A DNA stretch of 64,000 nt, taken from the NCBI RefSeq assembly GCF_022045235.1, contig NW_027266270.1:35650001-35714000 (forward strand), in the 5' to 3' direction. The notes under the pieces are model-generated. The model worked only from the letters and a program-made list of their open reading frames with translations. It ran no database searches and was not told the origin of the DNA. Shown here piece by piece: positions 1 to 60,530 of this stretch; position 1 is the stretch's first letter; the number at the start of each line of letters is the position of its first letter. This DNA comes from Haliotis cracherodii (lineage: Eukaryota). The position numbers and the translations under genes are program-made.

Positions 1-1721
1 CCAATGATTTACATTGTGAGCAACAATCCGCATCGTTGGGTACAGTGGCACGCAATTAACCAAGTCGCTGATCCCGACTACCCGATCCATTTGGCTGTCT
101 CATACGACCAGCACAGGTTGCTAGGAACCTATTATAACCAGGAACCCCCATGGGGTTCATCTAAGACAATCTCTCGCAATGAACTCAGGGCGTCCACAGC
201 ATATCAAAAACCAATTCACTTGTCCAGCAGTTTGGAAGAAGCGAGCTTTGAATTATGACATTACAATATGGCTGAAAGTAGCATGGCTAAAAATTCCTCA
301 TAACATTTTTTTATCATGAAAAAACATGTTCCAAATACAAACCAGATAAATCGTCCTTTCACTATATGGGAACATTTATTACATCAACAGGGAGCAGAAC
401 ACCTCCAAGACTAACAATGATGGATTTTAAATGCCATAAACCTTCCCTTCCATTTCATTCCCTCATACAAATCCATACATATCAGACCCGAGAAGTTGGT
501 GATATTGATCCTCTGGAAATTCTCAGAACAAAATTGACCATTTCCTTTGACAGAGAGGCAGGTTATTGTAGGATTTGCTATCATGATCAACCAAATGGCA
601 TCCCACTAGCTGGGCAAACCTTTGGCCCCAAGAACCTTGCCATAGGGAGGCTAGGCTTAGACCTTTTATAATCCCAGAAGCCTCCACTGCCATATAACCT
701 CCGCAGACCCCCAAAAGATCTTTTCCTGACTTGGAGTGTCTTGTAAATTACCTACTGATCACTGTTATCCATGCAAGATGATTTCATTACCACTTTCAGC
801 TTCTGCGTCATCTGATGTCCTTTTTTGTTTTTTTTAAACAACATTTTCTGCACTTTCAGTGGGTTTGACTTATGTGTAGTCAAGGTCATTTGTGATAAAG
901 GGCAAATAGGCCACATGGAAAAATATTAAGTAAAGAGGGTTAGAGGAATCTCTTGGAAAGTAATTTTGTACATTGTCTGCCAGAAAAGGTTTTAATATGG
1001 AAGGGTTTGTCAGACTGTGCTGCCGTAAAAGCATATATTTGGGAAAAGGTCAGAGCTATTTGGGATTGTGGATTGTGTGAAGACATTTTGGGGTTTGAGT
1101 TTCAAGGAGGAATGTTGCGCTGTTTAAAGGGTAATAAATGTGCTCTTATCACACAAAACGCATGTCTAGTTGCAGACACAGCTTATATCAATGTCCATCA
1201 AAATCTGCCAGAAACCGATCTGTTGCTGATTCAACACTTTTCATTCTTTAACCCGGCTGAGAAGATTTTGAGGCAAAAGAATAATCCTTATTACTGGGAT
1301 AACTAGAACCTGTAAAAGACCATCTTTACCATTTAGTTCCAATTGGCAATCCGAGTTCGTGCCAAAAAAACAACATTTGTGTCTACTTGAACGAACTCAG
1401 CATCATTTTCAGCAGCTTTCAGTGCTCTTGGCTGAGCTGAGCTCCGAAGACAATTTAACTAGACTCGGACTTTGGACTCATGGCTCATGTTAAGGTACAC
1501 TTCTTCAACACTTCAACAAGTAAAAGAGTGAATTTTGCAGTGTTACACTAATATTTCAGTAACCCTGTAAACAACAGAATCTGAGCTTGGCAAACCAATG
1601 GTTAAAAACATGAGCTTCAGTTCTTGCTGCCAGGGTAAGACAAGATGTGGTGAGACAGGTCCTATATTGTAACCCCTTGTTAGTCATCAGTCAGCTCTTA
1701 CAATATGCATGATTTTGTTCA

Positions 1722-1904
1722 TGTGTTTGTTGTTTAACGGCGCACTCAGCAATATTCCACCTATATGACGGTGGTCTGCAAATAATCAAGTCTGGACCAG
1801 ACAATCCAGTGATTGACATCATGAGCATCAATCCACGCAATGATGGTCGACTTTTAAGTCAAGAATGGATTGCTGAAGACGTATTCTACCCCAGATCTTC
1901 AAGG
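1722..1904 (-). mobile_element. Family D retroposon (further copies ~1-155, 2258-2460, 16640-16860, 25497-25730, 35970-36310, 37143-37378, 50040-50200, 51198-51423, 54957-55140 on -; 55558-55790 on +)
   Basis: Shared GTTGTTTAACG.CGCACTCAGCAATATTCCAGCT tail, CCAGACAATCCAGTGATTGACATCATGAGC body and TTGCTGAAGAC.TATTCTA.CC head. Confidence 0.8.
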
Positions 1905-2528
1905 CTCACAATAAGTATGAGATGCTGAGCACTAAACTGTACACAGGATAAGAGAACTTAAGATGGGGCTCACCAACAAAACACTGGGATGGGAGATCGA
2001 TGGTCCACTTGATCTATCACGGAATGGTTTATCTGTTGGGCTCCAAATGAGATACTTTTTGTAAATAGTTTGATTGTTCAGCATTAGAAATTGGCACTAG
2101 TCCCGTAGTCCTTGCCAAACTGGCCAATAGTTAAGGTATCATAAGGACCAGTAGGAATTTGCCTTTTTTAAGGGTTTTTGCTTTATGTTATCATTATAAG
2201 GACTATATAGACTAAAAATGTTAGTTTCTCCTGCTGATGTTGGTTACTTCCACACTTTGCAATATTCCAGCTGGAAGAAGGCTGTATGTAATCGTGTCTG
2301 GACCAGTCAATCCAGTGATTGACATCATGAGCATTGATCTACTCAATTGGGACACGATGACTTCCACCAAGTCAGCAAGTCTGACCACTGGTAGTCCATA
2401 AGTCGTATCTTAGTGCAAGCATAGGTTCCTGAAGACAAATTCTAACCTGGTCATCTAAGTGAGTTTGACAGATAGAAGTATACTTTATCTTGTAATCTTT
2501 ATCAGTAATCTCTAACTCTCCAGTAATC

Positions 2529-5590: not shown

Positions 5591-6961
5591 CTGCAACACA
5601 AAGCAGAATACTGACATAAACATTCTGTACAATACTGGTACAAACCTCTAAACCAATACAAATGTTATCAACAGTGTTTCATGCTACAGTCGGCTATATT
5701 CCAGCTATACCACACTGACCTATACACAAGCAAACCAGTGGTTGACAGTATAAGTACCCAAGACTGTTGCCAGTGGATATTGGTTCACCCACACCCTGTA
5801 CACTGCATGTTTGGTTACAAATTCAATTTAAAACAGTTAATCTTCAGGTAACCTAGCTCTACATAGTAAACACAGTACATCTCCTAAGCTTGTTACACCT
5901 ATATTCCAAAATTTAACAGCAGAAACAAGAATGAGAAAATGTGTCCTTGTCAAATTTCAAATTTGCTTACATCACAAAAATTGGTGAAAAATAAGGGAAC
6001 ACACACAAACAATCTTCCATTTCCCCTGTGCTAAGATTGTGCTCTCAGTGTTTCCAGACGAGCATCTCCAAAGAGAGCTCACTGTTTCCGACACAGAAGA
6101 AGATAGATGGGATTCAAACCAGGATGAGGATTTTCTAATGGTGACAACAAATCATTCTATTTCCAGAATGTCCTTCCTTGGAGGCCAAATGGCTAATGCC
6201 AGAGTTTGGAAACCATTATAACGAGTCGTGTAAACAGTGTGTAGCTCAGCTCATGGACTAATGAGCACCAGAAAGGAAAAGCTCATTCACCTGCCACGAC
6301 ATCACATTTATCATGCCTATTTCAAGGTAAGGCACAACTATAAAGTTCAACCTAAATCCTCCCGGGATCACCTCAATCGAGTTTGAAAAGTACATGAAAC
6401 AGAGGGGAAAAAATTGACAACACCATAAAGACTATTTTTCTTCAGATGGCATCTATTTTGCGTTTTCCAAGATTAAGACAAACTATACTATACATCCAAC
6501 ATCATCTGTAACAATGTGGGTTGTACTTCTTTCAAAAAACATCTATTGACAAAGGGAGGCAACTCTGCATGGGGAATTCTGGCTCCTTTGAACATTTGGC
6601 CATTTGTTGGTGTGTTTGCTTGTTGTTGAAAGCTCTCAATGCTACTGTCAGACCAATTCGACAAAGTGTGTCACTAGCCCTGCATCATCAGTCGAACCCA
6701 TTCTATAGGCACATAGCATAAGGACACCCCAAATAAAACTTGCAATAACTGTTCACTAACTAGGTTTCATGCATCATGTAAATTATGTATGATATGTATA
6801 AACATTCAGCTTTCCAAACATCATGAGTTTATTTACCTCTAAAAGAAATTACTGCATAGGACAAACATCAGATCCAATTGAATGAGTATCTTAAATTTAT
6901 GCACGAATTATACCCAAGTCAGAAAGTTGCATGGTTAGACGCAGCTAACATGAAAAAAAAG

Positions 6962-7622
6962 CCTGCACCCCTACTCTGAATCACAAGTGAACAGGTTACA
7001 TGTGCACACCCTGCACCCCTACTCTGGATCTGCAAGTGAACAGGTTACATGTGCACACCCTGCACCCCTGCTCTGGATCACAAGTGAACAGGTTACATGT
7101 GCACACCCTGCACCCCTACTCTGAATCACAAATGAACAGGTTACATGTGCACACCCTGCACCCCTACTCTGGATCACAAGTGAACAGGTTACATGTGCAC
7201 ACCCTGCACCCCTACTCTGAATCACAAATGAACAGGTTACATGTGCACACCCTGCACCCCTACTCTGAATCACAAATGAACAGGTTACATGTGCACACCC
7301 TGCACCCCTACTCTGAATCACAAGTGAACAGGTTACATGTGCACACACCCTGCACCCCTACTCTGGATCCGCCAGTGAACAGGTTACATGTGCACACCCT
7401 GCACCCCTGCTCTGGATCACAAGTGAACAGGTTACATGTGCACACCCTGCACCCCTACTCTGGATCACAAATGAACAGGTTACATGTGCACGCCCTGCAC
7501 CCCTACTCTGAATCACAAATGAACAGGTTACATGTGCACACCCTGCACCCCTACTCTGGATCTGCAAGTGAACAGGTTACATATGCACACCCTGCACCCC
7601 TACTCTGAATCACAAGTGAACA
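6962..7622. repeat. 48-bp minisatellite, ~14 copies
   Basis: Unit CAAGTGAACAGGTTACATGTGCACACCCTGCACCCCTACTCTGRATCA. Confidence 0.97.
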
Positions 7623-8175
7623 TGTGTGGACCAAGAACAGAGGTGAAGCAAACTGCTCTTGGTTTGATTCTTTTCATGTGTACAATGTGGGAAACCCATT
7701 CCTGGCTTTCCCACACCGGAATACTGCCAAATCACAAGGCCAAGCCCGACAGACCAGTCAAAATCTGCCACTATCCCTTCACAACCAATAAATTCCACAG
7801 CAAAATGAAATTTCCACCACAACCAACTAACCCATCATTTGTCTGGGGCACATCAAATCTTTTAAGTGTATTCATGAAGACATGTTCAGCTCCAAATACT
7901 TGCTATTGAAAATCTTTATTACATCCCTGGCCAATAATTAAACGAATGCAGTGTATGCCATCCCTCACCGCCATCATGAATACTAGAGTGTCCTATTTTT
8001 ATGCAGAACCAATATTGGTATTGATGTAATTCCAATCAACCACTTTCCAATTTTCCCCGACAGGGTTCCACAAACTTAAGTCTATAAGTTGCTGAAGAGC
8101 ACTTGGCAAACTCATTTTCTGCAAGACTTCAAGTTAACTAAGCTTAATGGTGGCTGTACCATGACACAAACTTAC

Positions 8176-8394
8176 AGGTCTGAGATTTGGAACTGGCATT
8201 AATGAGACAGGTAAGACCAGTAACCCATATATTCGCCTCATCCGGCGTATTGGCGATCAGATCCATCGACTCGAACTCCTCTCCAAAGATTATGGAAAAA
8301 GCGCATTCGTCGGGGTAAATCCCTGCAATTTCCTTGTTCCGAAGAGCATCTGTGGTTTTTCCTTGCCGGACCTCTTTGACTGATCGAACCGCAA
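8176..8394 (-). CDS. PLCL: PLCL exon, C-terminal half of PH domain
   Basis: (I)AVRSVKEVRQGKTTDALRNKEIAGIYPDECAFSIIFGEEFESMDLIANTPDEANIWVTGLTCLINASSKSQT, with PLC PH motifs KEVR.GK.T, CAFSII.G and LDL.A......NIWVTGL. Acceptor TTACAG, donor GTAAGT; 219 nt. Split codon A|TT=Ile joins the previous exon in frame. Confidence 0.95.
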
Positions 8395-9043
8395 CTGTAA
8401 CGACAAATGGTTGAGATTGGTTAGAGTAATTACATGGGATGGTGTCAAATGACAGCAACAGGTTGTCAGAGAGCCACCTGGAGGGAAATTATGTCACAAT
8501 GGTTATGTCCAAGATTGTGGTTTAATCAATCTTATTGAATTGTCTGACAGGTATCTGTTGCAGATCTGTGTCAAAGAAACATCACAAAAGGATTCACTGA
8601 TAAACATGGATGCAGGTGGTAATGTAATTATTCCATGTCACCATACAATGCTGACAAGAATGTTGGAGAATGTTATTAGAATCTTGCCAGGACAATAACA
8701 GTTTTGGGGAAGTTTTATGAGCAAGATATTGATTGATATTTTACTTGGTCATGGTGTGTTATTGAGCAGTTCATGAAAGTCCCCAGGTCCTTGTGGGCTG
8801 CCTATATTCAAATTGCATAAGACAAGGGGCCGGTCATTTATTATAGAGGGGGTGGGGGTTTTGGGGGTGTTGGGGTGGAGGGTCAAGGTCAGAGGGAATC
8901 AGATTGAATCAAGGGAGGATGTTCAGATGTTGGATGTTTTCCATGACACAAACAGATAATCTGTTCAAAACAACTCAATCCCTATAAATCTGTTCATCGT
9001 CTTCAGTGCTTGAAATTTAACATGATTGTCAAGGGGTCATCGA

Positions 9044-10416
9044 CAAGTGAGTAACGATACACCAATATTCCAATGCATCGCGATATTTAACCGACCATAC
9101 GATACACATGGGCCTATATATCAATACGGAATCTTAAGAACAGTGTTCACTCACTATTGCACCCCTCAATATATTGTTAACCCAGTTATAGCATGAGGTA
9201 ACGCATGGCTCCCAAAACTTACTTACATTTTTAATAAGGCTTAGTTTCCTGCTAAGTGAATGAGAAAATATGCAAAGTAATCGTAATCTCTGCACATTAA
9301 ACAATACCTTGGAGAACTTGGTTAAAGGGCAAGTTCACACGGAAATGAACCATTTTTTCTTGTACTTTTTCCACATTAAAAGTGTTAACATAGAAGTGTC
9401 ATAGACAAAAATATAAAAACATCATATTTAATTAACATATTTTTGGCACTAAAACGATTCATATTTTTCACATTTACCAAGTGTTCTATTTCCATAACAA
9501 AAACACCATGGCTTATGCCCCTTGCAATATGACGTCATTGGTGCCAATTGATAAACATTATGACGTCATCATGCTTTGTTAGAGCCGCTTCACGTGGGGT
9601 AGGTACAGTTTTGTGATTCTAGCATCTCAGATGCCAGCCAGAATTGTGTTATGCTGAGACACCACTGCGCCGGAGTGTGTCGTAGACCATGTTGTTTTAC
9701 CGCAAACTGGTCCTTGATATCTTTTGCGTTGAGAATAGACAGGGACCCAGTTGAATTGGCACCAATTACGTCATAATCTAAGGGGGATAACTCAGGCCTA
9801 TTTCGCTCGTAAAACGAAGGCCTCATAACGGCATATCACTTTCACACTATTGTGAGCTTCCTACTTTCACTGTGAAAAAAAATGAGTGTATATTTTCAAA
9901 CACAGATACTAACTAATTCTAAAATTGCGTTTTGTTTAGAAAAAGAAAGAAAGCGATTTTTGCGTGTACACTTCCCCTTTAAGATACAACAGCAAGAGAC
10001 ACTGTCAGTGCCGAAGGGCATCATTGTCCCTTGACAATGTAGACATTTTAATTTTTCTGAAAAAGAACCCTGAACTTGAACTATTCAGACTGTGAAGTAC
10101 ATTGATTATTTTCTGGTGTTTGAACTTTGAAGTTTTCTGTTGTTTTGAAATTTACAGCATTTGAAGGAAAGTTAGAGAAAGTTCCATTTTGAAGCAAAAC
10201 AACTTTAGTAGTCTTGTTATTATAAAAGAATTTTGACTGTACCAAAATCATGAAAGGTCCAATCGTGACATGCTTGAAGCCTTGAAACTTATTAAAAGCT
10301 GGAGCACTGTTATCTGTCTTTTATGTATTGTTGCGTAACGTGATATGTATCGTAATGTGACCAAACTATCGAGCAACGTATCATATCATGACCTTCCTGT
10401 ATCATTGCAGCCCTTG
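9044..10416. mobile_element. Non-autonomous hAT-like DNA transposon with subterminal CGATAC repeats
   Basis: Left CAAGTGAGTAACGATAC, right GTATCATTGCAGCCCTTG; flanking direct repeat GTCATCGAC / GTCATTGAC. Confidence 0.65.
9326..9978. mobile_element. Kolobok-like non-autonomous element in a TTAA target, nested in the hAT-like element
   Basis: TTAA|AGGGCAAGTTCACACGGAAA ... TTTGCGTGTACACTTCCCCT|TTAA; TIRs match at 16 of 20 positions. Confidence 0.78.
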
Positions 10417-11167
10417 TCATTGACATAAACTGAGTGTTTAAAGCTACAAGGGGTGACTCAGTTAAAATTGTATCGTACAACTTCAAGGACATTCTCAATA
10501 ACTCCTTTAACCCCTGCCTTCAGCTATACTTGTCACCAAGCAAATAATTACTGATTCCTCATCAGATTGTAACACAAACTGTTATCCTCCCACTAATATT
10601 AACCTAAATTAAATTACTGCCCATACACGTTCATTCCACAACCTAATCACTCATACCTCTGATAAAAATACAGCAACTAAAAAACTGTCTGACTTCAATA
10701 CCTCTATTCATATGAAAACCTAACATACTTTATTACAATCCACAATAATAACTAAAATATTAGCCAATCATAATCTTCATCACATATATCCTATGGCACA
10801 GCAACCAATCAGTGGTGAGCATCTTCAATGAAGCAACCCTTTTCTTGTCACTTTCAGGTGTAATTTTCAAAGACAGTGATCTGTCCTCAAGTTCAACACA
10901 CTGCCACACCGAGACACTCCAAGTTTCAACACAGTTGCTGCTAACATGTGACAACTTCTGGACCCTTGGGTAATCAGTGTTCTGGGAGAGTCTTGCACAA
11001 ATTTCACTGGCCTTGATGGACACAGCACTTGTGTACTTCCCACCAAAAGAGATGCACACTTCCTGGATCTAATGGCAAGGAAAGGTCAAACACTCAGCAT
11101 GGAGGCTTTGAGTATTTGCTGAACAGTTATCAGTAAGAAAAGCTGAAACATCAAGGATGTAAGGTGG

Positions 11168-11364
11168 CAGTGTTTGAAATATAAAAAATTGTCTGATTGC
11201 CTTCAGGACATGCATACTTTAGAAGCTGCAGGCCTTGACCAAACTCTTCGGGCCCTCATTTGACATGTAAATTTACTGCAGGTGATAAGGACCCATACAA
11301 ATTTGAAATTATGGGTCTGCCACAAAATCTGCCTGCCACGAACAGGTGCTTATTTCAAAGACAG
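11168..11364. mobile_element. hAT-like MITE
   Basis: CAGTGTTTGAAATA ... TATTTCAAAGACAG; flanks TAAGGTGG / TCTGGTGG. Confidence 0.55.
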
Positions 11365-13027
11365 TCTGGTGGGTCACCTCCATTGATTTTATTCAGGAAT
11401 AGTATGTGAATAACTGTGAATGAGTGACGGAACCACGGCGTGAGTGAGGGCAGTAGGACACAATGGAGTGAGTGAGGGAAAAAAGAAGAGAGAGGGGGCA
11501 GGAACACAGTGAACGTGTCAACAGTATATTTTGTTATCAAAGCTGGACCTAGCCATGCAGCACATATCAGGGTGACTGAAGTCTTAACTGACCACACCAT
11601 CAGGTACCCGACTCAGCACCCGAAGTCATAGAGAGCTGCACCATCTTGTTATCCAACACTGTACCGAAATCATTAAGCACTACACTATCAGGATTCCCAA
11701 TGAGCACTAGATCATAAGGGTAGCCAACTCAGTAACAAAAGCCACAAAGCACTACATCTTGTGAGTACTCAGATCACCAGGGCACTGAGACCCTCCACAT
11801 CAGGGTACAAGTCATAGGGCACAACACCATCAGGGAAAGATCACACCACCATGTCCCTAATGACAGTCGGTCTTCCAATAGTGATGGCCCATGAAAATAC
11901 CAAGCCACTCTGTATTGACCGTATAATTCCCACTATGGTCACCTCTTAGAGCAAGCATGGCCAGAGCATTGACCATCGATTCAGCATAGAGGCCCACAAT
12001 TTATTTGCTAACATGTATCCCAATCTAGCACAAGATACCTTAGCAACCATCAGTGCAGAATCACAATTCACGTCACCAGCACAAATGCAGGTATGTAAAA
12101 CAGAAACTAACTTCATTACCATGGCGACTAGAACCAGGGAGCTCAAGCGTAGTTAACACAATTTCCCTTCTTGGAAGAACCAAAACTGCCCCCGTTTCAA
12201 GTGAGACATGAAATATAGTAAATATTTGGATTGTCAGCCCTGACATGATTCAATTCCTCATTGTCACTCTGTTCAGCCGATCACAGGTCATTACCATCCT
12301 GCCCTTTATTAGTGTATTAGTGTCTGCAGAATGTTATAAAGAGACAAGCGGTTGTCACTATAGATCAATGGCAACATGATGACATTGTGCTGAATACCAT
12401 CACGATGGAGGCCGTTTTCTACATGATTACATACACACTCAAGTCAATAACATTACGAAGTCAACCAATATTCATCCATCTATAAATGGCAGACCTATCA
12501 ATTACATCCAAAATGAAATTCTGGACTGGCTCAATTCGTAAGCCTCTTCCACATTCAGCACCATGACAGCTGCCCCAGTGACTCTCGCCTTCCAATATTC
12601 ATAGAACAGGCTACGATGGTGACAAAAATACAAGTTGAGTATTAACAGATCTATTAGATGGATGACCTGGTATCTGAGCCCAGAGGAACCGCTGGACAGC
12701 ATTATTAATCAGCTGCAGACCTCCTCTCTGTAACTCTCTGGGGCTGGGAGTTGAGGGAGGGCAGCAAGTCTGACTTCATGGTAGTCATGAGGACCAGATC
12801 TGGGAGAAATCTGGGGGAAAAGGTCTGGTGTGGGTGTGACACCTTTCAAGTGATGGGGCTGGGGATTGGAAATGACACTCCATTTTCTGTCAAAATCCAG
12901 GTCAGTTGGTGCAGAGGGATTCAGCTTGTGAGAGGACTTTGGTTGATGGAGCAGGAAAGTTTTGTAAGAAGATGGATCTTAGTTTGACTGATTGGACTGT
13001 GAAATGATGAATCTTGGTTTGTGAGGT

Positions 13028-21814: not shown

Positions 21815-22053
21815 AAAACAAAGACTTCAACTTCTGCTGATGTCTCCGCAGGTAGTCAACAACTCATGTTCCACATAACTGGATGCAACATATAGTGGGG
21901 ACCTCTTCTGCCCTTAAATTCCAGTGGGATCATTTTGTCACAGAGTGAATGAGTGAGTGAGTGAGTTTGGCTTACTGCTGCTTTAAATCATGGTTCAGTA
22001 ATGTCATAGCATGTCAGCATGACTGTGATGCAAGATCTAAGATTTTACCATGA

Positions 22054-22195
22054 CCTGTGAACATCTGGGTTAGAATAGGTCTTCAGCAACCCATGCTTGT
22101 CATAAGAGGCAACCAACGGGATCAGGTGGTCAGACTCGCTGACTTGGTTGATGCATGTCATCGTATCCCAATTGCGTGGATTGATGCTCATGATC
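22054..22195 (+). mobile_element. Short non-autonomous retroposon family D (no tRNA head), 5' part
   Basis: CCTGTGAACATCTGGGTTAGAATAGGTCTTCAGCAACCCATGCTTGTCATAAGAGGCAACCAACGGG...; roughly 15 homologous pieces in the window. Confidence 0.82.
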
Positions 22196-23501: not shown

Positions 23502-25906
23502 AACATGTCAGTTCATGAATTTAAGTTAAATTACATATATTCTTGGAAACTCATTTTTAAATAGAATAGCAAAACATTCAGTCATACATTCATACATACC
23601 ACTGAAATGACACAAAAATGATCTTGAACACTTTATTTTATATTTTGAAACATGAGACGCCTATAAGCAAGTTGTTTTAAAGAAAACTACTTTTAACTGA
23701 TCGTGATAAATCATTCATATTCAGTTGGGTCTCACACAAAACAAAATGAACCCTTTGCAAAGTCTGTTAGCATGCAATCCAACGCACCATAATTGAGTCT
23801 AAGGTGAGACTTAGTCCGGTCAAAAGCTACAACTAATTCCCTATGATGCGTACTTTCCCAGCTTTCTGGTGGCTTCAAGAACATCTACATCACAACTCAA
23901 CACGTGTAATGGAGAGAAGGTGCGAGAAAACATAGTTGGATAAATCAATACCTTGCATTTTGCAGCAGAAAATGTCAAGCCCCCCACTTGGGATGAAAGA
24001 GAGTGATGTTCATTTCACAGCTGATAGCAACAGCCAGCAATCTTCAGTGGGAGAAAGGTTGTAAATAGCGGCATCAACATTGTGAGTAGGATGGAGGTTA
24101 TATTAGCAGCATTGCAGAAAAGGAGGGATTTGTGAAAAGTTGTAAAATTCTCGGCTTGAGATTAAAGTTCGTTGGAACTTATTTGAATGAATTTCTTTCA
24201 AAGATTTGAATGCATGGTCACACTAAAATATTTAATGGCAACAATTTCCGTGTACACTTCGTTTATGGATGTCAAGCACATTTTACTGCATGATTCAAGA
24301 CTGCCAATTAGGATTGGCACCAATTTTCTGAACTTAATGTTTAATGAGATAAAACCTACAATACTTCCAAATTCAATACATATTACATTTATTTGTGCAA
24401 AGGTCATTTGAACTTCACATGAATACAATTTTTTTTATATTCTGTAATCTACAAGACAAACTGCAATGTTTTAGGATTAATGTAGCCTGTTTTTGGAAAT
24501 GTTTACATCAGTCTCTGTGTCGACAAGCAGAATCAATACAAACTCACTCTGAAAAACACTTATCAAACAACAAAAATGTTCAAAACCAAATTACAAAATT
24601 AGATTTCAAAATTCATGTGGAGTGGGATTTCCATTCAAATTATTTGATTTCTTTCAAACTATGAATGATAATTTACCAAAATGAATATTCAATTTATAAG
24701 GCTATGAGTCATTTTGTAAAAGCGTATTATTGCCCAAAAAAACTTTTGATGCACTTTTAAACAAATTGCTAAAACAGAATATCACAGTTCCTTTAGCAGG
24801 CTATTTGTTAAAGACCATACACTTCTCCTCGATCATGTCTAATGATTCAACAAACTACATTCAAAAATGAAGTTTGTTAATGCATAAATATTGGCCATTA
24901 ACACTCCCAGTTTAGCAACAAAACACTTCAATTTGTTTCATGGTGACAGCTTGGTTCAGACATCTCCGTCATCAACACTCCATCAGTGGTTAGAGGCTGC
25001 AGGATCCTGATAGGTGACAGATTTACTCATCAAAATGCCGGAATCATTCATGTGATAAATGACCATATTCTGAAAGATGTTTACAGTTGAGCCAGGTTTT
25101 ATTACTGCCAAATCAAGAGTGGTGATGAAGACCTTATTTGGAATCTGTAAAATAAAAATGTCTAAATGATTCTGCATCTAATACTGGGATGGACACCATT
25201 GGTCATACCCAACTAGTCCCCAGCTCATTTAGAACTGGTTTGGGTTATGTAAATTAGCTAGATTTGGGGATAAAACAACTGGATGCTCTAGATTTTCACT
25301 TGTCTGCGACTCATGGACAAGCGTGCATGTCCATACTTGAAGTAGCAGAGGAATGAACAAAGAACACACTTCCAATGCTAAACTCTTCCACCAGTCTGCA
25401 GACACACAGACAGCAATCATTCCTGTGGATATAGACTCTTGAGTAGATACGAAGGCCCCTGGATTGTGGGGCAGATTACACTTTAAGCAGCCCATGTTTG
25501 TTGTAAGATTTGTTGGTTTGCTTCCCAGCTTAACTCAATATATTCTTGCAATATGAATGCAACCAGCAAATAAATAGTCAGGAGCAGACAATCCAGTTAT
25601 TGACAAGCATTATGATCCACACAGTCGGGTTATGATGACATGCTGTCAACCAAGGCACTGAGTCTGACACCCAATCCATTAAGACCAGCATAGGTTGCTG
25701 GGGACCAATTCTAACTCGGAATATCTACAAGTTCTCTATTTAGACACCTCTTATGACTTTCAATGTGGTGCTGGGGACATGTGGTGCTGGGGACGTGATG
25801 CTGGGGACATGTTCACAGGGGCAGTATGTGACACAGCTGCATGGTTATGTATCATCACATCAAGAAGGTATGATGACACTACCCATCACTATTGCTATCA
25901 CCCACT

Positions 25907-36924: not shown

Positions 36925-37074
36925 TTCTTGCTTTGTGCGCTTTCTTTGACGTGGGCTGCCATCGTATCTCTGTCATGTCATTGCTGAGCGAGAAGAAGCG
37001 GTGGTACTGCCGACTGTTGGATCGCACCTTTATCAACTCACTGCCATTCTGCATGTACGCCAGGCAGTCCTGGG
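36925..37074 (-). CDS. PLCL: PLC-like protein (PLCL/PRIP) exon, N-terminal half of PH domain
   Basis: Translates to QDCLAYMQNGSELIKVRSNSRQYHRFFSLSNDMTEIRWQPTSKKAHKAR, closely resembling the PLCL1/2 PH domain as recalled (DC..M.EGSELKKVRSNSRIYHRYF...RW.PSKK). Acceptor TGTTTTGTGTTTTCAG, donor GTAAGT; 150 nt, phase 1/1. Confidence 0.95.
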
Positions 37075-38050
37075 CTGAAAACACAAAACATGCATTAGAT
37101 AAATAATTATCCAGCGTTCACTCCAGAGCATAGCAATTGTTAGTTTGTTTGTTTGTTGTTTAACGCCACCCTAATCAATATTCCAGCTACATGATGTTAG
37201 TCTGTAAATAGTCCAGTCTAACCAGACAAACCAGTGATTGATATCATGAGCATCGATCTAAACAACTGGGATACAATGACATACATCAATCAAGGCAGTG
37301 AGCCTGACCAGACAATCCATTTAGTCACCTCTTTATGACATTCTCAGGTGGCAGGGGACCAATTATAATTCGGATATGAATGAGATATTTCAGTTATGAC
37401 ACTGAAAATATCAGCAATGTGTGTCACAAGGGCGTAAAGTTTCTATATCTAGCTTGTATGTTGAAGCGAGCAGAGTGTGTACTGCCTGTTGCAAAACAAT
37501 TGCTATCCAAAGCATGACACCTTTACCTCTATTCTTGTCATACAATGAACAAGGATCATTCTGTGAATTTTCTGATGTGGGCCGGCCCATTTAGCACTGA
37601 TAAGTGACATTTGGAACAATTCATGTGATGCCTATATAATACTCTGTAATAAAGCCCCACTGCTTTTGAAAATGTGGGCTTTTTTTCAGATTTATGGGCC
37701 AAAAGCCCAAGGGCCCTTCCTAGAATTATCCCTGGAGGCAACTTAATGGATTCAGAGGTCAAGCCTGGTGACTTTGTTAATTGCATGTCCTTACAGCACT
37801 CAACGGGTGACAAGATTTACCATATCAAGTATGATTCAATTGGTGAGTGGGCATTCCAGGCTAGAGGCTGGTCATGAGAGGCCAACCACATAGCTTGCGT
37901 GGTCACTGGTCACTGTCATCTATTCCTGACAGGATGTAGAACAAAACATTAATCACTGGTATGTGTGGTCCAGGCTATGTCACGTTCAGCTAACTCCCAT
38001 ATTACTGCTGACTGCGGTGTTCAACAGGAAGCAACCATCACTACCTTCTT

Positions 38051-38606: not shown

Positions 38607-38836
38607 TTTGTTTGTTGTTTAACGCCGCACTCCAGCTATATGACAGCTGTATGTAAATAATCAACTCTGTACCAGACAATCAAGTGATTGACATCATGAG
38701 CAACAATGCACCCAGTTGGGATACGATGACATGCATCAACCAAGTCAGCAAGCCTGACCACCCCATCCCATTTGTCACCTCTTACGACAAGCATAGTCGC
38801 CTTTTACGGCAAGCATGGATTGCTGAAGACCTATTC
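38607..38836 (-). mobile_element. Family D retroposon with duplicated hairpin module
   Basis: TTTGTTTGTTGTTTAACGCCGCAC tail; GTCACCTCTTACGACAAGCAT followed by AGTCGCCTTTTACGGCAAGCAT. Confidence 0.82.
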
Positions 38837-39091
38837 ATCACAAGTGTGGTCACTGATGAAGATTGTACAGGTGCCAAGTGTCACTACACCACAGTTAGCA
38901 CAATCCCTTTAACGTAAAGGAGGGTGTTATGTATTCACCACAACTGCTTCTTCTTTAGCGGACACGTCCACTGTGTTGGTGAGCAGTGCTTTGCTTGTAA
39001 TTGTAAGTCATTACTAGTTTATCAAGAACAAAGACACCTTCATACATGGCTGGACGACTGTCATAACAATTGGATCAACTTGTGTAAGCAA

Positions 39092-39437
39092 GACCGCCTC
39101 CGTGGTCTGGTGGTAGTCAGCATCCGCCTGGAGAGCGGAAGGTCCAGGGTTCGATCCCCGGCCGCATCATACCAAAAGATGTTAAAAGATGGTACTTGTT
39201 GTAACCCTGTCTGGCGCTCGGCATTAAGGGGCTAAAACAAGGATTGGTCGGCTCAGAGTCAGTATACTGTGTCTGTGTGGGATATTCATGTTAAACTGCA
39301 GCATGGTATCTCGCTAGCTAGCAGTATGAATCGGCATCAGTTCGGACTAGTACAAGTAGCCACAAAAACATGCACGTCACTGTATAAGTGCAAAAATCTT
39401 GGACGCGATGTTAAATCCCATTTCACCTCACCTCACC
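39092..39437 (+). mobile_element. tRNA-derived SINE family B (Meta-like), full length
   Basis: GGTTCGATCCC B box, CATACCAAAAGATGTTAAAAGATGGTACTTG core, (CACCT)n tail; perfect TSD TTGTGTAAGCAA at 39080-39091 and 39438-39449. Confidence 0.9.
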
Positions 39438-50718: not shown

Positions 50719-52794
50719 TAACATAAAATAATCAAATCAGGTTTAGGTTCTAGGGAAGAACTAGACTTTGTACTGTGAACTACTCATAAGCATACAGGAG
50801 CTTATTTTCGGATCAAGTTTGCCATGAAACTGCAGACACACATAGATATGTATCTGTTATTGAGAAAGCAAGTTGAGCTTCAAGTAGGCAGACTATCGGT
50901 CTTTTTCCAGGCTGTGGTTGGATTTTTCTTGGGGAAAAAATGATGACACACAAGACAAGATTCCTCATGTAAACGATGTCTGCAATTAACTTGTTTTTCA
51001 TCACTGTGCCGGCCTTGCTGTGTGGCAATCATCGCATCAGTTATACCTGACACAAATACTGTAGGATAGTGGTCTGATGATGCTATATTTTACTGCCTGA
51101 ATTTAACCAAATTCTATCTGGTCCATCTGTTCCATATTGAATCAAAGGCCCGGTAAAGTATCACAGTGGAACAATTCATTAAAATGTGTTTCTCCTTTGT
51201 TGTTTAACCCCACACACCTGTATTCCTGTTATGAGATGGAAACCTATAAATAAGCAAATCTGGACCGGACGATCATGTGATTGATACAGGAACAGCACTC
51301 CACACCATTCATCGGAGTATCCTGCAATCAACCAAGTCAGAGCCTGACCGACTGATCCAACAAGTCACCTCTCACTACCAGCATCGGTTGCTCAGGACCA
51401 ATTCTACCCAGAATCCCATCAGGAAGCAATACAATTACAAATGTACATTGATGCTTCATCATACACCAGGTATGTATTCCACTGCCATGTAATAGGATGA
51501 TGACATAAAATGATGAGTTATATAGATATTGGTTGGGTACTGCAGCAGTAGAATCTAACATTTTCAGTCCACTAGTCCTATTGACACCTGAACTATTGGA
51601 CTGCTTGGCAAGGACTAAAGGACTAGTGCCATTTCTAATTCTGGTACCCTTATTGGGTAAATGTCGGTGGCTCGCCACATGTTTCTGTGATGTGGCTGTT
51701 CATCTTGATGGAAAACGACAAGGCAGGACAGTGGTCTTTTTTTGTTCACAGGATGGGCATTCTTTAAGAAATAAGCAAATTTCTAGAATTTGCTATGAAA
51801 ATTAGCACGTGTTGCTATGATTGAGAACAAGGCTTTGTTCATCTCAGCACATGCATGTTTAAGATTTACGACAACACTAAATGCATAGATAAGGAAAAAA
51901 TCTCGTCCTAATAAACATGGAACTATCCTTAAGAATTACAAAGCCTTTGTGAATATTCAACAGGATTGTTAGCCTGTATTTGTGTATAGACGGCTATTTC
52001 ATCAGCAGACAGCTGCAAGATGACAAAGTTAAACATTTCTGAGATGATATTCAATGTGAAGACACACTGACCTAGCAACACCTAAAAGCATGCATTTACA
52101 AGCTACGGCCAAGAGAATGAAATATTTAACAAGAGGATTCCATTTTTTCAGGAATTTGACAAATCCATTGAATTTTATATCTTTGGTATGTTCTCTTAAT
52201 CAGATTTTCCCAGCTGTTGTAACAATAAACATTCAAATGCTTGGAAACATCAAATAATGTTAAGAAGTTTTATTCTGGGCATAAAATTATATGTTGAAGT
52301 CATCCTATCGACTGGCTCTGTGAGTCTAGCAAACACACACGCATAAAAATCAACAAGAAGAACATTTGTTATCAACAAGCTTGCTATCTTTGGCAGACAA
52401 TCACATTCATATTCCACTTCCCCCAGATCCAGGAAAACAGTAACAATTTGTGTTAATGACACCAATGCTTTCATTTCTTCTCAAGTCTGATCAGTTTGCT
52501 TATTTATCCTTGACAGAAGTGTAGTTCCTCTGTCAGGAAAGGTTGGCTTATGTTTATTTTGTGTTTATTTGTGAACATTGAAAGGTCAGGTTGGAACTTC
52601 TTGTATACCAAAACAGCGAAAATACTTGCAACAGGTTAGATTTTCTATTCCTCCCCTGCTGAAATGCACACCACGGCTTCCCATGATCATTGAAGATTTT
52701 AACATGGAAGACCATGGTTATCTTAGACATTGCCATACAACAATATCTTCAACTAATACAGTAATCACTAGACAGAAACCAAGTCTACCAAACA

Positions 52795-54279: not shown

Positions 54280-57200
54280 TATAAAGTCTTATTATTTACA
54301 ACAACACAAATATATATTCTCAGTGTAAACAATCCTCAACCTGGAATATCATCAAATGGTTAGAGGATCATATACAGTAAAAACATACAAAATCGGTTTG
54401 GAAACTATCTGATCACTTCGGATGAACTGGTCTTCAGTGCCCCATGTTTGTCATAAAGGTTAGACCTGGATGATCATAATGTCTGCTGATGGTATCACTG
54501 CCACTGTTGTTTTCTGGTCGGAACTTTAGGAGTTGCTCAACTTGTACCCAATCAGTTACACTATTGTGAATAAGATAAGCGTAAAACAAAATTTAATTAT
54601 TTACTGGTCACTATGATATAACAGCTACAATAAAGTGGGCTAAAACATTCACTCACTGACTGTAAGCTGGCCGATGGATACATTGAATTTGCAACAACAA
54701 TTTCACCAAAGTCATTGGGATTGGCCATAGACCACAAAAACAGGACTTGTCCTTCTGAATCGCAAGTGATGCTTACAACACTTCTATTACCTACAAGACA
54801 GCAAAGTGCATCTGTTTCATGGAACTTCGAAGAAGTCGTAATTAACCCTGAAAACCCTGCACGCACTGGTGCAAAATCACTTGCTATTAAATCTAACTGA
54901 CATGTGCAAGAAACATGCCAGGATCTCATGCTGTAGTCACAGGCATGCAGATATTGGCTTGTTTGTTTAATGCTGCGCTGACGCTATATGATGGCAGACT
55001 AATAATGAGTTGAATAACAATCCCCAGTCGGGGCAAGGTGACACCCAGTCAACTTGGTCACCGAACCTGACCATCCGATCAATTAGTCCTTCCTCTTATG
55101 ACCAGCATAGGTCGACAGGGAGCAATTCTAACCCGGCATGGGTATGCAAATAAACATCACTGCTTGCATGGAAACCCAATAGATCTGCAGTATATCAGTC
55201 TTCATCAAAAACGTTTGAGTATATAGGCACAAGCTTGTCTCTTGGCATCATTTCCAGTGAGTGTAGTGTTGATGTATGGACTATTATTAGCAACGTGTAT
55301 TAGACAAAACAAAACATTTGTAGACTCAGGTTGTGGACTGGTGGATGGAGATGCAGACTGGGAAGGATGGGTCGGATGATGTCCACACGGATTAGTATTG
55401 ACATATCCATCTTCCCAAATCCATAGGTCCACAGAAATATAATTATTCAGGGTTGTAACTGAACACAAAAGCTTAAGTAACCCAAGATAAAATGCCTTTG
55501 TAATGTAAAACAATGGCAACATTGGTAAAATTGTAATATCTGCAGGAATTTGTACTAGACCCGGGATAGTAAGCTGGTATTAAGTTCTAACCATGCTAAA
55601 AAATGGCTGTACTCGTTGTTAGAGGTGTTTAAGCGGATCGGGTGGTCAGACCCAGAGACTTGGTTGTTTGAACATCATGCTGTCCCAAATGCATGGATCG
55701 ATGATCACAATGTCAATCACTGCATTATATGGTCCAGATATTGACAGACTGCCATGATATTGCTGAGTGTGGCATTAAACAACAAACAAAGTGTTTCTGT
55801 TTTTGACTCAAAATAAAGAAAACATTTGCAAGACCAAACAAACTTCTCTTCTAATAGTTAATAAACAGGTTGAATTTACTGACACAGTATCATTTCCTAC
55901 CAACCACAGAGACTTCTTATATTACAGATGTTCGACATTATTTAATGACCACTGATGAACAACTTCTTTTCCTAACTGTCCTACCAACCCGTTGACCTTG
56001 AGACTTCCTTCCCATTATCAAGGTCAAATACAGGTGACCTTGACCTTTCATTAAAGCAAGATCAAGTATGGAAAAACTTAATTTGAGTGAGGATGAACTG
56101 GCTACTCAGATGGTAGAGAAAGGTCAAGTTCAGAGAAACAAAATCTGGATGTGGATGTACACATTATTGGCTGCTCAGATGAAATCAGCAATACCCCAAC
56201 ATGACCTCCTCAACCCTTCCACCACACCCATGGATTAACTGTCAGACGATGGCTGCTACCAATGGTATCACCAGAACAATCCATGATCAAGCACTAAGAA
56301 ACCATCGGCATCAAAGATACAATCTTAGATATTTTACCAAGTACATGTATAAGCTCATGGCCATGAATTGCGGTGTCTCCAGAAACCAATACCTTTCTGA
56401 GAAAGAATCGATGGTATAAGATACCCACATCCAAAGTACAACAACAGCTGACACATACTGACACATCAAAGCCTTCAATGTACAGCCGGTTCAAAGATGA
56501 ACACTTCAACAAAAACTGTCAATCTTTGAGAACGAAGTCAACATCTAAGCCTCCCAGATCTTCCACTGCACAAACCAGATCCACCTTCTTCAAGAAGGAA
56601 GACATGCAGAATGCTCACTTTAATACACAAACACACTGGGATTAAAAGCCTTAATTCAGCCATTCAAGCAAAACCAGCCATTTCATCGTTCCACATGATT
56701 CGAAGAGAAAGTGAGGAATTCAACAATGGCAACAGATTCCAAGAACCTGCCATGAACTTGGATGAATGTCTGGACACTAAATGCCAACATGAATGTGAGG
56801 ATATGTATTTCTTGAAGAAGGAATCCTGAAGAAGGACTTATTTCACCATGAACTAAGCTGTGCTCATCATAATGAAGCTAATTAACACTGTTCCCAAATG
56901 TCATAGAAAACCTTCAATAATCACCGATGCTGCCATAACTTTACCATTATCCAATCTACTGAATCCTGTGAAAGAGATTCTCTTTATGAAACTGATGCCT
57001 GGTTTTACAATGAAACATCAATATATCTGCTCAGGGACTGACTATTTTATATTCTGCAAGCTGGGATTTTTCTGAAAAACATATTAAAGCCTAAGCTACA
57101 AGGCCCTAAAAAACATAAAACAAGACAATCAGAAATAATCACTGGATGTGTTGTGGAAAAAAAATGCTATCAGAGAAAAACATTGTCTCTAACAAAAACC

Positions 57201-60191: not shown

Positions 60192-60530
60192 GACCTCCTC
60201 CGTGATCTAGTAGGAGAGCGTCCACCCAGAGAGTGGAGGTCCGGGGTTCGATCCCCGGCCTCGTCATACCAAAAGAAGTTAAAAGAAGGAACTTGTTGTT
60301 AGCCTACCTGGCGCTCGGTGTTAAAGGGGCCAAAACAAGGACTGGTCGGCTCAGAGTCAGTATACTGTGTCTGAGAGAGGTATTCATGTTAAATGGTGTC
60401 TCAGTGGGCTGGCACTATAAATCAGTTTTAGTCCGGACTAGTAAAAGCAGCCACACACACATGTGCATTCACATCGCAATATAAGTGCAATAATATTGGA
60501 CACACTGTTAAACTCCATTTCACCTCACCT
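60192..60530 (+). mobile_element. tRNA-derived SINE family B, full length
   Basis: Colinear with the 39092 copy; flanking direct repeat TCAAATGAGC. Confidence 0.88.

Follow-up and report, generated by a model that had tools for sequence, protein, structure and literature searches.

The 5′ head of an abundant short retroposon in Haliotis cracherodii is predicted to form a compact RNA module, a pseudoknot followed by a hairpin, that is common to LP-SINEs, I-group LINEs, and the 3′ UTRs of RNA viruses. By analogy with the exonuclease-resistant RNAs (xrRNAs) of viruses, this module may act as a roadblock to 5′-3′ exonucleases, a reading that we adopt tentatively. More tentative still is the wider proposal that the heads constitute an undescribed class of xrRNA that has passed between LINEs, SINEs, RNA viruses, and an iridovirus and that would give promoterless retroposons within host transcripts their exact 5′ ends and, in a LINE, would form a cut-then-guard tandem with an HDV-like ribozyme. 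The element class itself was already known (Matetovici et al., 2016, PMC4758252); the new part comprises the fold, the viral copies, and the tandem of HDV-like unit and pseudoknot, for which we found no report in the literature searched (subscription journals, Repbase, and Dfam lie outside its coverage). The fold provides a testable structure for a 5′ domain that had been recognized in retroelements of molluscs, insects, fish, and turtles by 2016 but had been given no explanation.

Identity and Abundance of the Element

The window (the whole 64,000-nt stretch of DNA analyzed here) contains the flagged copy and several others (Table 1). The first-pass annotation had described the flagged stretch as a copy of a retroposon with a structured head; the profile match and alignment with genomic copies show it to be one copy of a high-copy repeat. 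The other copies it listed lie on the minus strand without exception and have the helix letters quoted. Decay is evident in the flagged copy (z = -0.43), which breaks off near 22194, leaving it without a tail or TSD of its own. The ~230-nt alignment of the best 30 genomic loci is terminated by (AAAC)n. In 654 kb of sampled DNA (the 64-kb window and 59 stretches of 10 kb), 254 profile hits make up 4.9% of the sequence and 90 copies bear a head; rough extrapolation from this sample to 1.18 Gb gives ~160,000 heads genome-wide. Most SINE profile hits in the window (20 of 26) lie on the strand of the PH-domain exon.

Table 1. Features of the window, with positions counted from its first nucleotide.
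Feature	Positions	Strand	Basis or remark
LP-SINE-type retroposon copy, 3′-truncated (positions 1-143 of ~230 nt)	22052..22194	+	profile match 2-143, E 9e-52; aligned with 29 other genomic copies
Structured RNA head (entire motif)	22052..22120	+	model R1, 58.3 bits; copy itself in the training set
Predicted pseudoknot stem S1 (22054-22057 with 22066-22069)	22054..22069	+	two wobble pairs in the flagged copy
Stem S2 (22059-22065 with 22078-22084)	22059..22084	+	first hairpin of the first-pass annotation
Loop L3, conserved AGAAUA at its end	22070..22077	+	4/6 letters >=90% conserved
Predicted stem P3 (22090-22092 with 22118-22120), around internal loop and P4	22090..22120	+	own-partner test
Predicted hairpin P4, GUCG/CGAC, decayed in the flagged copy; 7-nt loop 22103-22109	22099..22113	+	97% paired
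Older-subfamily copy	16..155	-	profile match
Copy with internal deletion	1732..1905	-	profile match
Copy	2246..2460	-	profile match
Older-subfamily copy	25540..25730	-	profile match
Coding exon, PH_12 match, E 1e-5 (just under cut-off)	36925-37074	-	domain match
Older-subfamily copy, intronic	37158..37385	-	profile match
Duplicated-P4 subfamily copy, 5′-truncated	38617..38839	-	profile match
Older-subfamily copy	51203..51423	-	profile match
Older-subfamily copy	55012..55147	-	profile match
Diverged copy	55558..55780	+	profile match

Among 41 full-length young copies, 20 have TSDs of 8-14 nt, and the spacing from TSD to the C-run that opens the head is exactly two bases in 12 of these 20 (GA in 9). 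Taken over all 41 copies, the first of the two bases before the C-run is G in 32 and the second is A in 34. In a large subfamily (32 of 58 scorable heads among the 90), the last hairpin, P4, is present twice in tandem, and at one place in the genome (L057-L060; G000:C3:44.36 Mb) the P4 segment has been multiplied into a tandem array of ~33-nt units.

The tRNA-less nature of the head, as first annotated, agrees with ARAGORN, which found no tRNA in any of five loci. The accompanying statement that no Pol III boxes are visible holds for the A box, which does not recur over the 90 copies, but B-box-like matches concentrate at +110 to +150. A separate, tRNA-headed repeat family is also present in the window (39093-39403, 2530-2795, and 60193-60500; Rfam tRNA, 30.5 bits at 39104-39169).

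The SINE head is 77-80% identical over 61 nt to the 5′ UTRs of related LINEs. A second shared piece is a 32-35-nt tail segment (the closest LINE tails, in L313, L322, and L324, are 89-91% identical over 32-35 nt), and the middle has no match. With only a ~60-nt head and a ~35-nt tail piece shared, the proposed origin by internal deletion of a LINE is unsupported. No LINE that ends in (AAAC)n and could be the exact partner was found. When the head was searched for in combination with a non-SINE body, all 30 loci proved to be SINE variants. A second head-pattern search, with 30 loci inspected by eye, returned SINE subfamilies, three members of the head-bearing LINE family described below, and some heads whose downstream sequence is unclassified.

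Taken as sequence evidence, head homology, the absent tRNA head, the TSDs, and the short-repeat tail indicate that the element is likely an LP-SINE. Such SINEs are known from Haliotis and other molluscs (Hdi_LP, Hmi_LP, Lsa_2, Sgl_LP, and the pectinoid MESC), and their ~70-bp head, a presumed promoter, is common to Nimb-17_LMi, I-3_DR, and RTE-9_CPB (PMC4758252). The elements described in that paper agree with the present one in having a LINE-type head of ~70 nt with no tRNA part, TSDs, a tail of short repeats, and a similar length (the Hmi_LP consensus is 255 bp). The paper differs in the hexamer before the Haliotis tail, AATATA there versus AATATT in the H. cracherodii copies, and in proposing a promoter; its section on these SINEs mentions no RNA structure, viral homologs, or partner LINE.

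A Predicted Pseudoknot and Hairpin in the Head

The fold that we favor, predicted from sequence comparison, places an H-type pseudoknot at the extreme 5′ end (S1 of 4-5 bp, L1 of 1 nt, S2 of 7 bp, and L3 ending in AGAAUA). The predicted 3′ half consists of P3, an internal loop, and then P4, whose 7-nt loop resembles a T-loop motif. The 121 heads with sufficient flank fall into 35 clusters, and the alignment holds 22 hand-picked rows, 20 from 19 clusters and two from H. cracherodii. The 16 excluded clusters mostly have a missing or decayed 5′ half, a selection that favors the fold; the alignment is structure-blind (plain MAFFT). Across these rows, the hairpin GAAGATC/GGTCTTC of the first-pass annotation, here S2, has double-sided changes at 7/7 pairs with 84% of cells paired. 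In S1, 84% of cells are also paired, and two of four pairs change on both sides. The invariance of P4 is built in, as P4 is the search pattern; the AGAAUA letters of L3 lie outside the core search patterns (16-17-nt core). In LINE copies, P4 is lengthened by a G-C or G-U pair, which favors its register. Fixed-column pairing is poor for P3 (40%), the register of which differs between families. Sliding the partners lowers whole-structure pairing from 77% to 32-50%.

A register-free test compares the pairing of each 5′ strand with its own partner against its pairing with the partners from other families, ignoring kinship. Own partners were preferred for S2 (p < 1e-4), for P3 (middle strand with the strand after CUAA; p = 1e-4), and for S1 (5′ end with loop; p = 0.014), the S1 and P3 pairings having been proposed post hoc from the same sequences as tested. 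Two other pairings of the first-pass annotation fared poorly: the closing helix CCCGT/ACGGG gave p = 0.23, with 1/5 fixed-column pairs double-sided, and the pseudoknot GGGTT/AACCC gave p = 0.09, with 0/3. This pattern was unchanged in a reduced set of 15 rows; in the six viral rows alone, the values were 0.0014 for S2, 0.20 for S1, 0.056 for P3, 0.29 for the closing helix, and 0.34 for the GGGTT/AACCC pseudoknot. Within the H. cracherodii SINE family alone, the closing helix together with GGGTT/AACCC is the more stable alternative, and these pairings may form there.

Association of changes among copies of one genome was rejected as a test of covariation, because a non-partner column pair was more strongly associated (p 1.7e-9) than the partner pairs (3.8e-6 and 8.4e-6). 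A-to-G and T-to-C changes co-occur within the genome, in non-partner columns likewise, and the paired changes earlier taken as compensatory are two subfamily events.

The Rfam search that the first-pass annotation had suggested gave no match to the motif in the window, in six genomic loci, or in eight outside loci (four of them viral; E up to 10). An HDV-like ribozyme was discarded for the flagged head, which has no P1-P2-P3-P1.1-P4 order and no Rfam match. The folds of hammerhead, twister, pistol, hatchet, and hairpin ribozymes, compared by eye, do not fit either. The annotation's view of a LINE-derived head with a conserved, pseudoknotted, non-HDV fold is supported. Scallop copies in Fig. 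S2 of PMC4758252 hold the 16-nt P4 segment and, compared by eye, an S2 hairpin with other letters.

Related LINEs and an HDV-Like Leader

The LINEs that bear the head are two-ORF elements; ORF1 is of CCHC type, and ORF2 combines APE, RT, and RNase H. In a contig from outside the H. cracherodii genome (L229), the head is followed by ORF1 and then by such an ORF2; its RT, used as a query, gave 150 scored matches in the H. cracherodii genome. Of 20 LINE copies taken with flanks, 18 carry the motif ~550 nt upstream of ORF1. By domain architecture and head sharing, the head-bearing relatives are I-group, Nimb-like LINEs, "Nimb-like" following PMC4758252. Ingi/Vingi elements have a single-ORF build. 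The relatives have two ORFs, and the part of the LINE that recurs as the SINE head is distinct from the HDV unit; derivation from an Ingi/Vingi element by internal deletion, as first proposed, is not supported by these LINEs. L229 belongs to the assembly of a bacterium (Solemya velum gill symbiont), in which positions 5976-11678 are an intact, eukaryotic-type LINE, and heads also occur in two Sedimenticola MAG contigs (L217 and L222); the sequences in these three contigs are likely host DNA.

In the H. cracherodii LINE, a 58-nt unit with all HDV features adjoins the 5′ side of the motif. P1 is paired 7/7 in 17 of 18 copies, as is P2 (7/7, 17 of 18), and P3, L3, P1.1, and J4/2 are present in all 18; the best Rfam match (RF02682) has E 0.004, below the gathering score. 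On this sequence evidence, the leader is a complete predicted HDV-like ribozyme. The TSDs of the LINE end -2 to +3 nt from G1 of the leader in 15 of the 16 copies with a TSD call. The family is young, of high copy number, and has intact ORFs, and its ribozyme has almost no P4 (L305-L321, L324, and L325-L354; example leader, L310:7167-7224, minus strand); many copies cluster at G000:C2:20.8-21.8 Mb. HDV-like heads of other non-LTR elements (L1Tc/ingi Pr77 and R2; PMC4035085) are likewise short structured 5′ modules found in different LINEs and in short derivatives, and the H. cracherodii LINE carries its HDV-like unit directly 5′ of the motif. The flagged SINE head, in contrast, does not have the HDV helix order, and the SINE starts after the HDV unit. 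No HDV-like match lies upstream of the motif in L229, and the tandem is therefore not universal.

The exact junction of leader and motif occurs 661 times in the genome. Among LINE copies chosen by the motif alone (the first 30 of 542), 29 have the full leader and one has most of it; at least two of these 30 are insertions also present in the set of 18 chosen by RT. No copy starts at the motif (0/30 motif-picked and 0/18 RT-picked). Because the leader is kept in 30/30, the motif neither cuts itself at its 5′ edge nor fixes the start in the LINE, and the self-cleavage entertained by the first-pass annotation is disfavored.

These counts weigh against a related reading, close to that earlier idea, in which the head is a new class of self-cleaving ribozyme that would cut at the base of S1 and free the element from host transcripts. 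Such a cut would lose the 58-nt leader that the LINE copies keep, and, we infer, a virus cut where its 3′ UTR begins would lose the end of its genome; the motif also has no Rfam match (E up to 10). We consider this ribozyme improbable, even with elements whose 5′ ends fall exactly at the first helix, with conserved unpaired letters, and with a LINE motif that differs at positions constant elsewhere, as if relaxed behind the HDV unit.

Homologs in Viruses

Four scans of a viral collection yielded seven true contigs and four chance matches (L235-L238), which were set aside. Six of the seven are RNA-virus contigs from five viruses, identified by RdRP or capsid families (L205 by a capsid domain alone), and include Hubei tombus-like virus 21 and Shuangao toti-like virus. 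Each of the six contigs carries the motif in coding sense, past the last long ORF and near the 3′ end; P4 starts 55-153 nt past that ORF, and another 30-122 nt separate it from the end of the contig. A second motif copy lies in tandem in L205. Because five different sequences share one position, chimeric assembly is an unlikely source. The seventh contig is invertebrate iridescent virus 6 (IIV-6), in which the motif (L233:9977-10055, plus strand) is intergenic between 206R and 209R, ~130 nt upstream of 209R, with letters close to those of the mollusc SINE head; it may be either a fragment captured by the virus or a leader with a function there. Its presence in RNA-virus 3′ UTRs and an iridovirus suggests that the motif acts as RNA.

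This distribution is difficult to reconcile with a promoter, the function that PMC4758252 proposes for LP-SINE heads but does not test. RNA viruses have no DNA stage, so that a DNA-only promoter cannot explain their copies; base-pair covariation is not needed by a promoter, and in the LINE another 58 nt of the element precede the motif. A promoter would suit the 5′ position and the purine first base in four families, and Pr77 is both promoter and ribozyme (PMC4035085). It is nevertheless the least probable of the readings considered here.

The Head as a Candidate Exonuclease-Resistant RNA

If the head is an xrRNA-like roadblock, a nuclease would degrade host transcripts that contain SINE copies from their upstream side and stall at the base of S1, leaving an RNA with a fixed 5′ end, and a Nimb-like reverse transcriptase would then copy the trimmed SINE RNA from the shared tail. 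In viruses, stalled trimming would leave a 3′ subgenomic RNA, and in the LINE the motif would be a second guard behind the ribozyme. A roadblock of this kind would account for the viral position, the tandem viral copy, and the exact SINE start. The excess of SINE profile hits on the PH-domain exon strand of the window is also counted in its favor. The predicted pseudoknot adjoins the presumptive protected 5′ end, judging from S1/S2 covariation and the element starts. Plant-virus xrRNAs are reported to stop Xrn1 at the first helix base and to sit both in 3′ UTRs and where coding subgenomic RNAs begin (PMC6299227), and the coremin xrRNA is reported to resemble an H-type knot and to require a downstream hairpin (PMC10321173). 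The head is similarly predicted to form a compact pseudoknot in viral 3′ UTRs, like those of the dianthovirus/luteovirus class (PMC6299227) and coremin (PMC10321173). It differs from both in helix order and conserved letters, in occurring also at the 5′ ends of host retroelements, and in that its resistance is predicted; no described xrRNA family model in Rfam matches it in eight loci (four viral; E up to 10).

Several observations run against an xrRNA. With 0/30 and 0/18 LINE copies starting at the motif, the LINE gives no sign that nuclease-trimmed RNA has served as a template, and retention of the motif by the LINE is poorly explained by a roadblock. Four short-element families start 1-2 nt before the S1 C-run with a purine as first base, as expected of a polymerase start; the scallop copies in Fig. 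S2 start within the C-run (PMC4758252). A frameshift pseudoknot of the ordinary H type is not enough to stall Xrn1 (PMC10321173).

Retention by the LINE is best accounted for by a cap-independent translation or RNP-assembly element, which would bring initiation factors or ribosomes to RNA that lacks a cap (HDV-cut LINE RNA, or viral RNAs in the manner of a 3′-CITE) and through which the SINE would gain access to nascent ORF2 protein. In the LINE, where the HDV unit in front is intact, the motif has paired changes in S2 and P4; the motif precedes the LINE ORF1 and the IIV-6 209R at the distances given above, and 3′-CITEs are present in Tombusviridae (PMC6299227). We regard this reading as unlikely, since by itself it does not give non-coding elements an exact 5′ start. 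In the first 300 nt of five viral contigs, moreover, the 7-nt loop has no full-length complement and L3 has one in a single contig (1/5). One 3′-CITE core motif was not found in the five contigs.

Should the head block Xrn1, the known range of xrRNAs would widen beyond viruses to include host transposons, and a third way to define a retroposon 5′ end would join the promoter and the ribozyme. Should it drive translation instead, this would explain how ribozyme-cut, uncapped LINE RNAs are translated. On either reading, a compact RNA module absent from Rfam spans viruses and several animal lineages.

Occurrence in Metagenomes

Core scans (16-17 nt) returned five contigs of the viral collection and at least 120 metagenome loci. 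A longer pattern gave 23 hits in GTDB, three of them true; the other 20 were set aside as chance matches. One metagenome cluster (cluster 27: L166, L134, L135, and 15 more) has the 3′ half of the motif only, preceded by (GTAA)n repeats, and is possibly an antisense tail module of another element. In cluster 3 (L114, L152, and L161), the head is followed by a tRNA-like segment, as in the scallop MESC SINEs. At L103:1366-1517, two different heads directly adjoin each other, and their helix letters are not the same.
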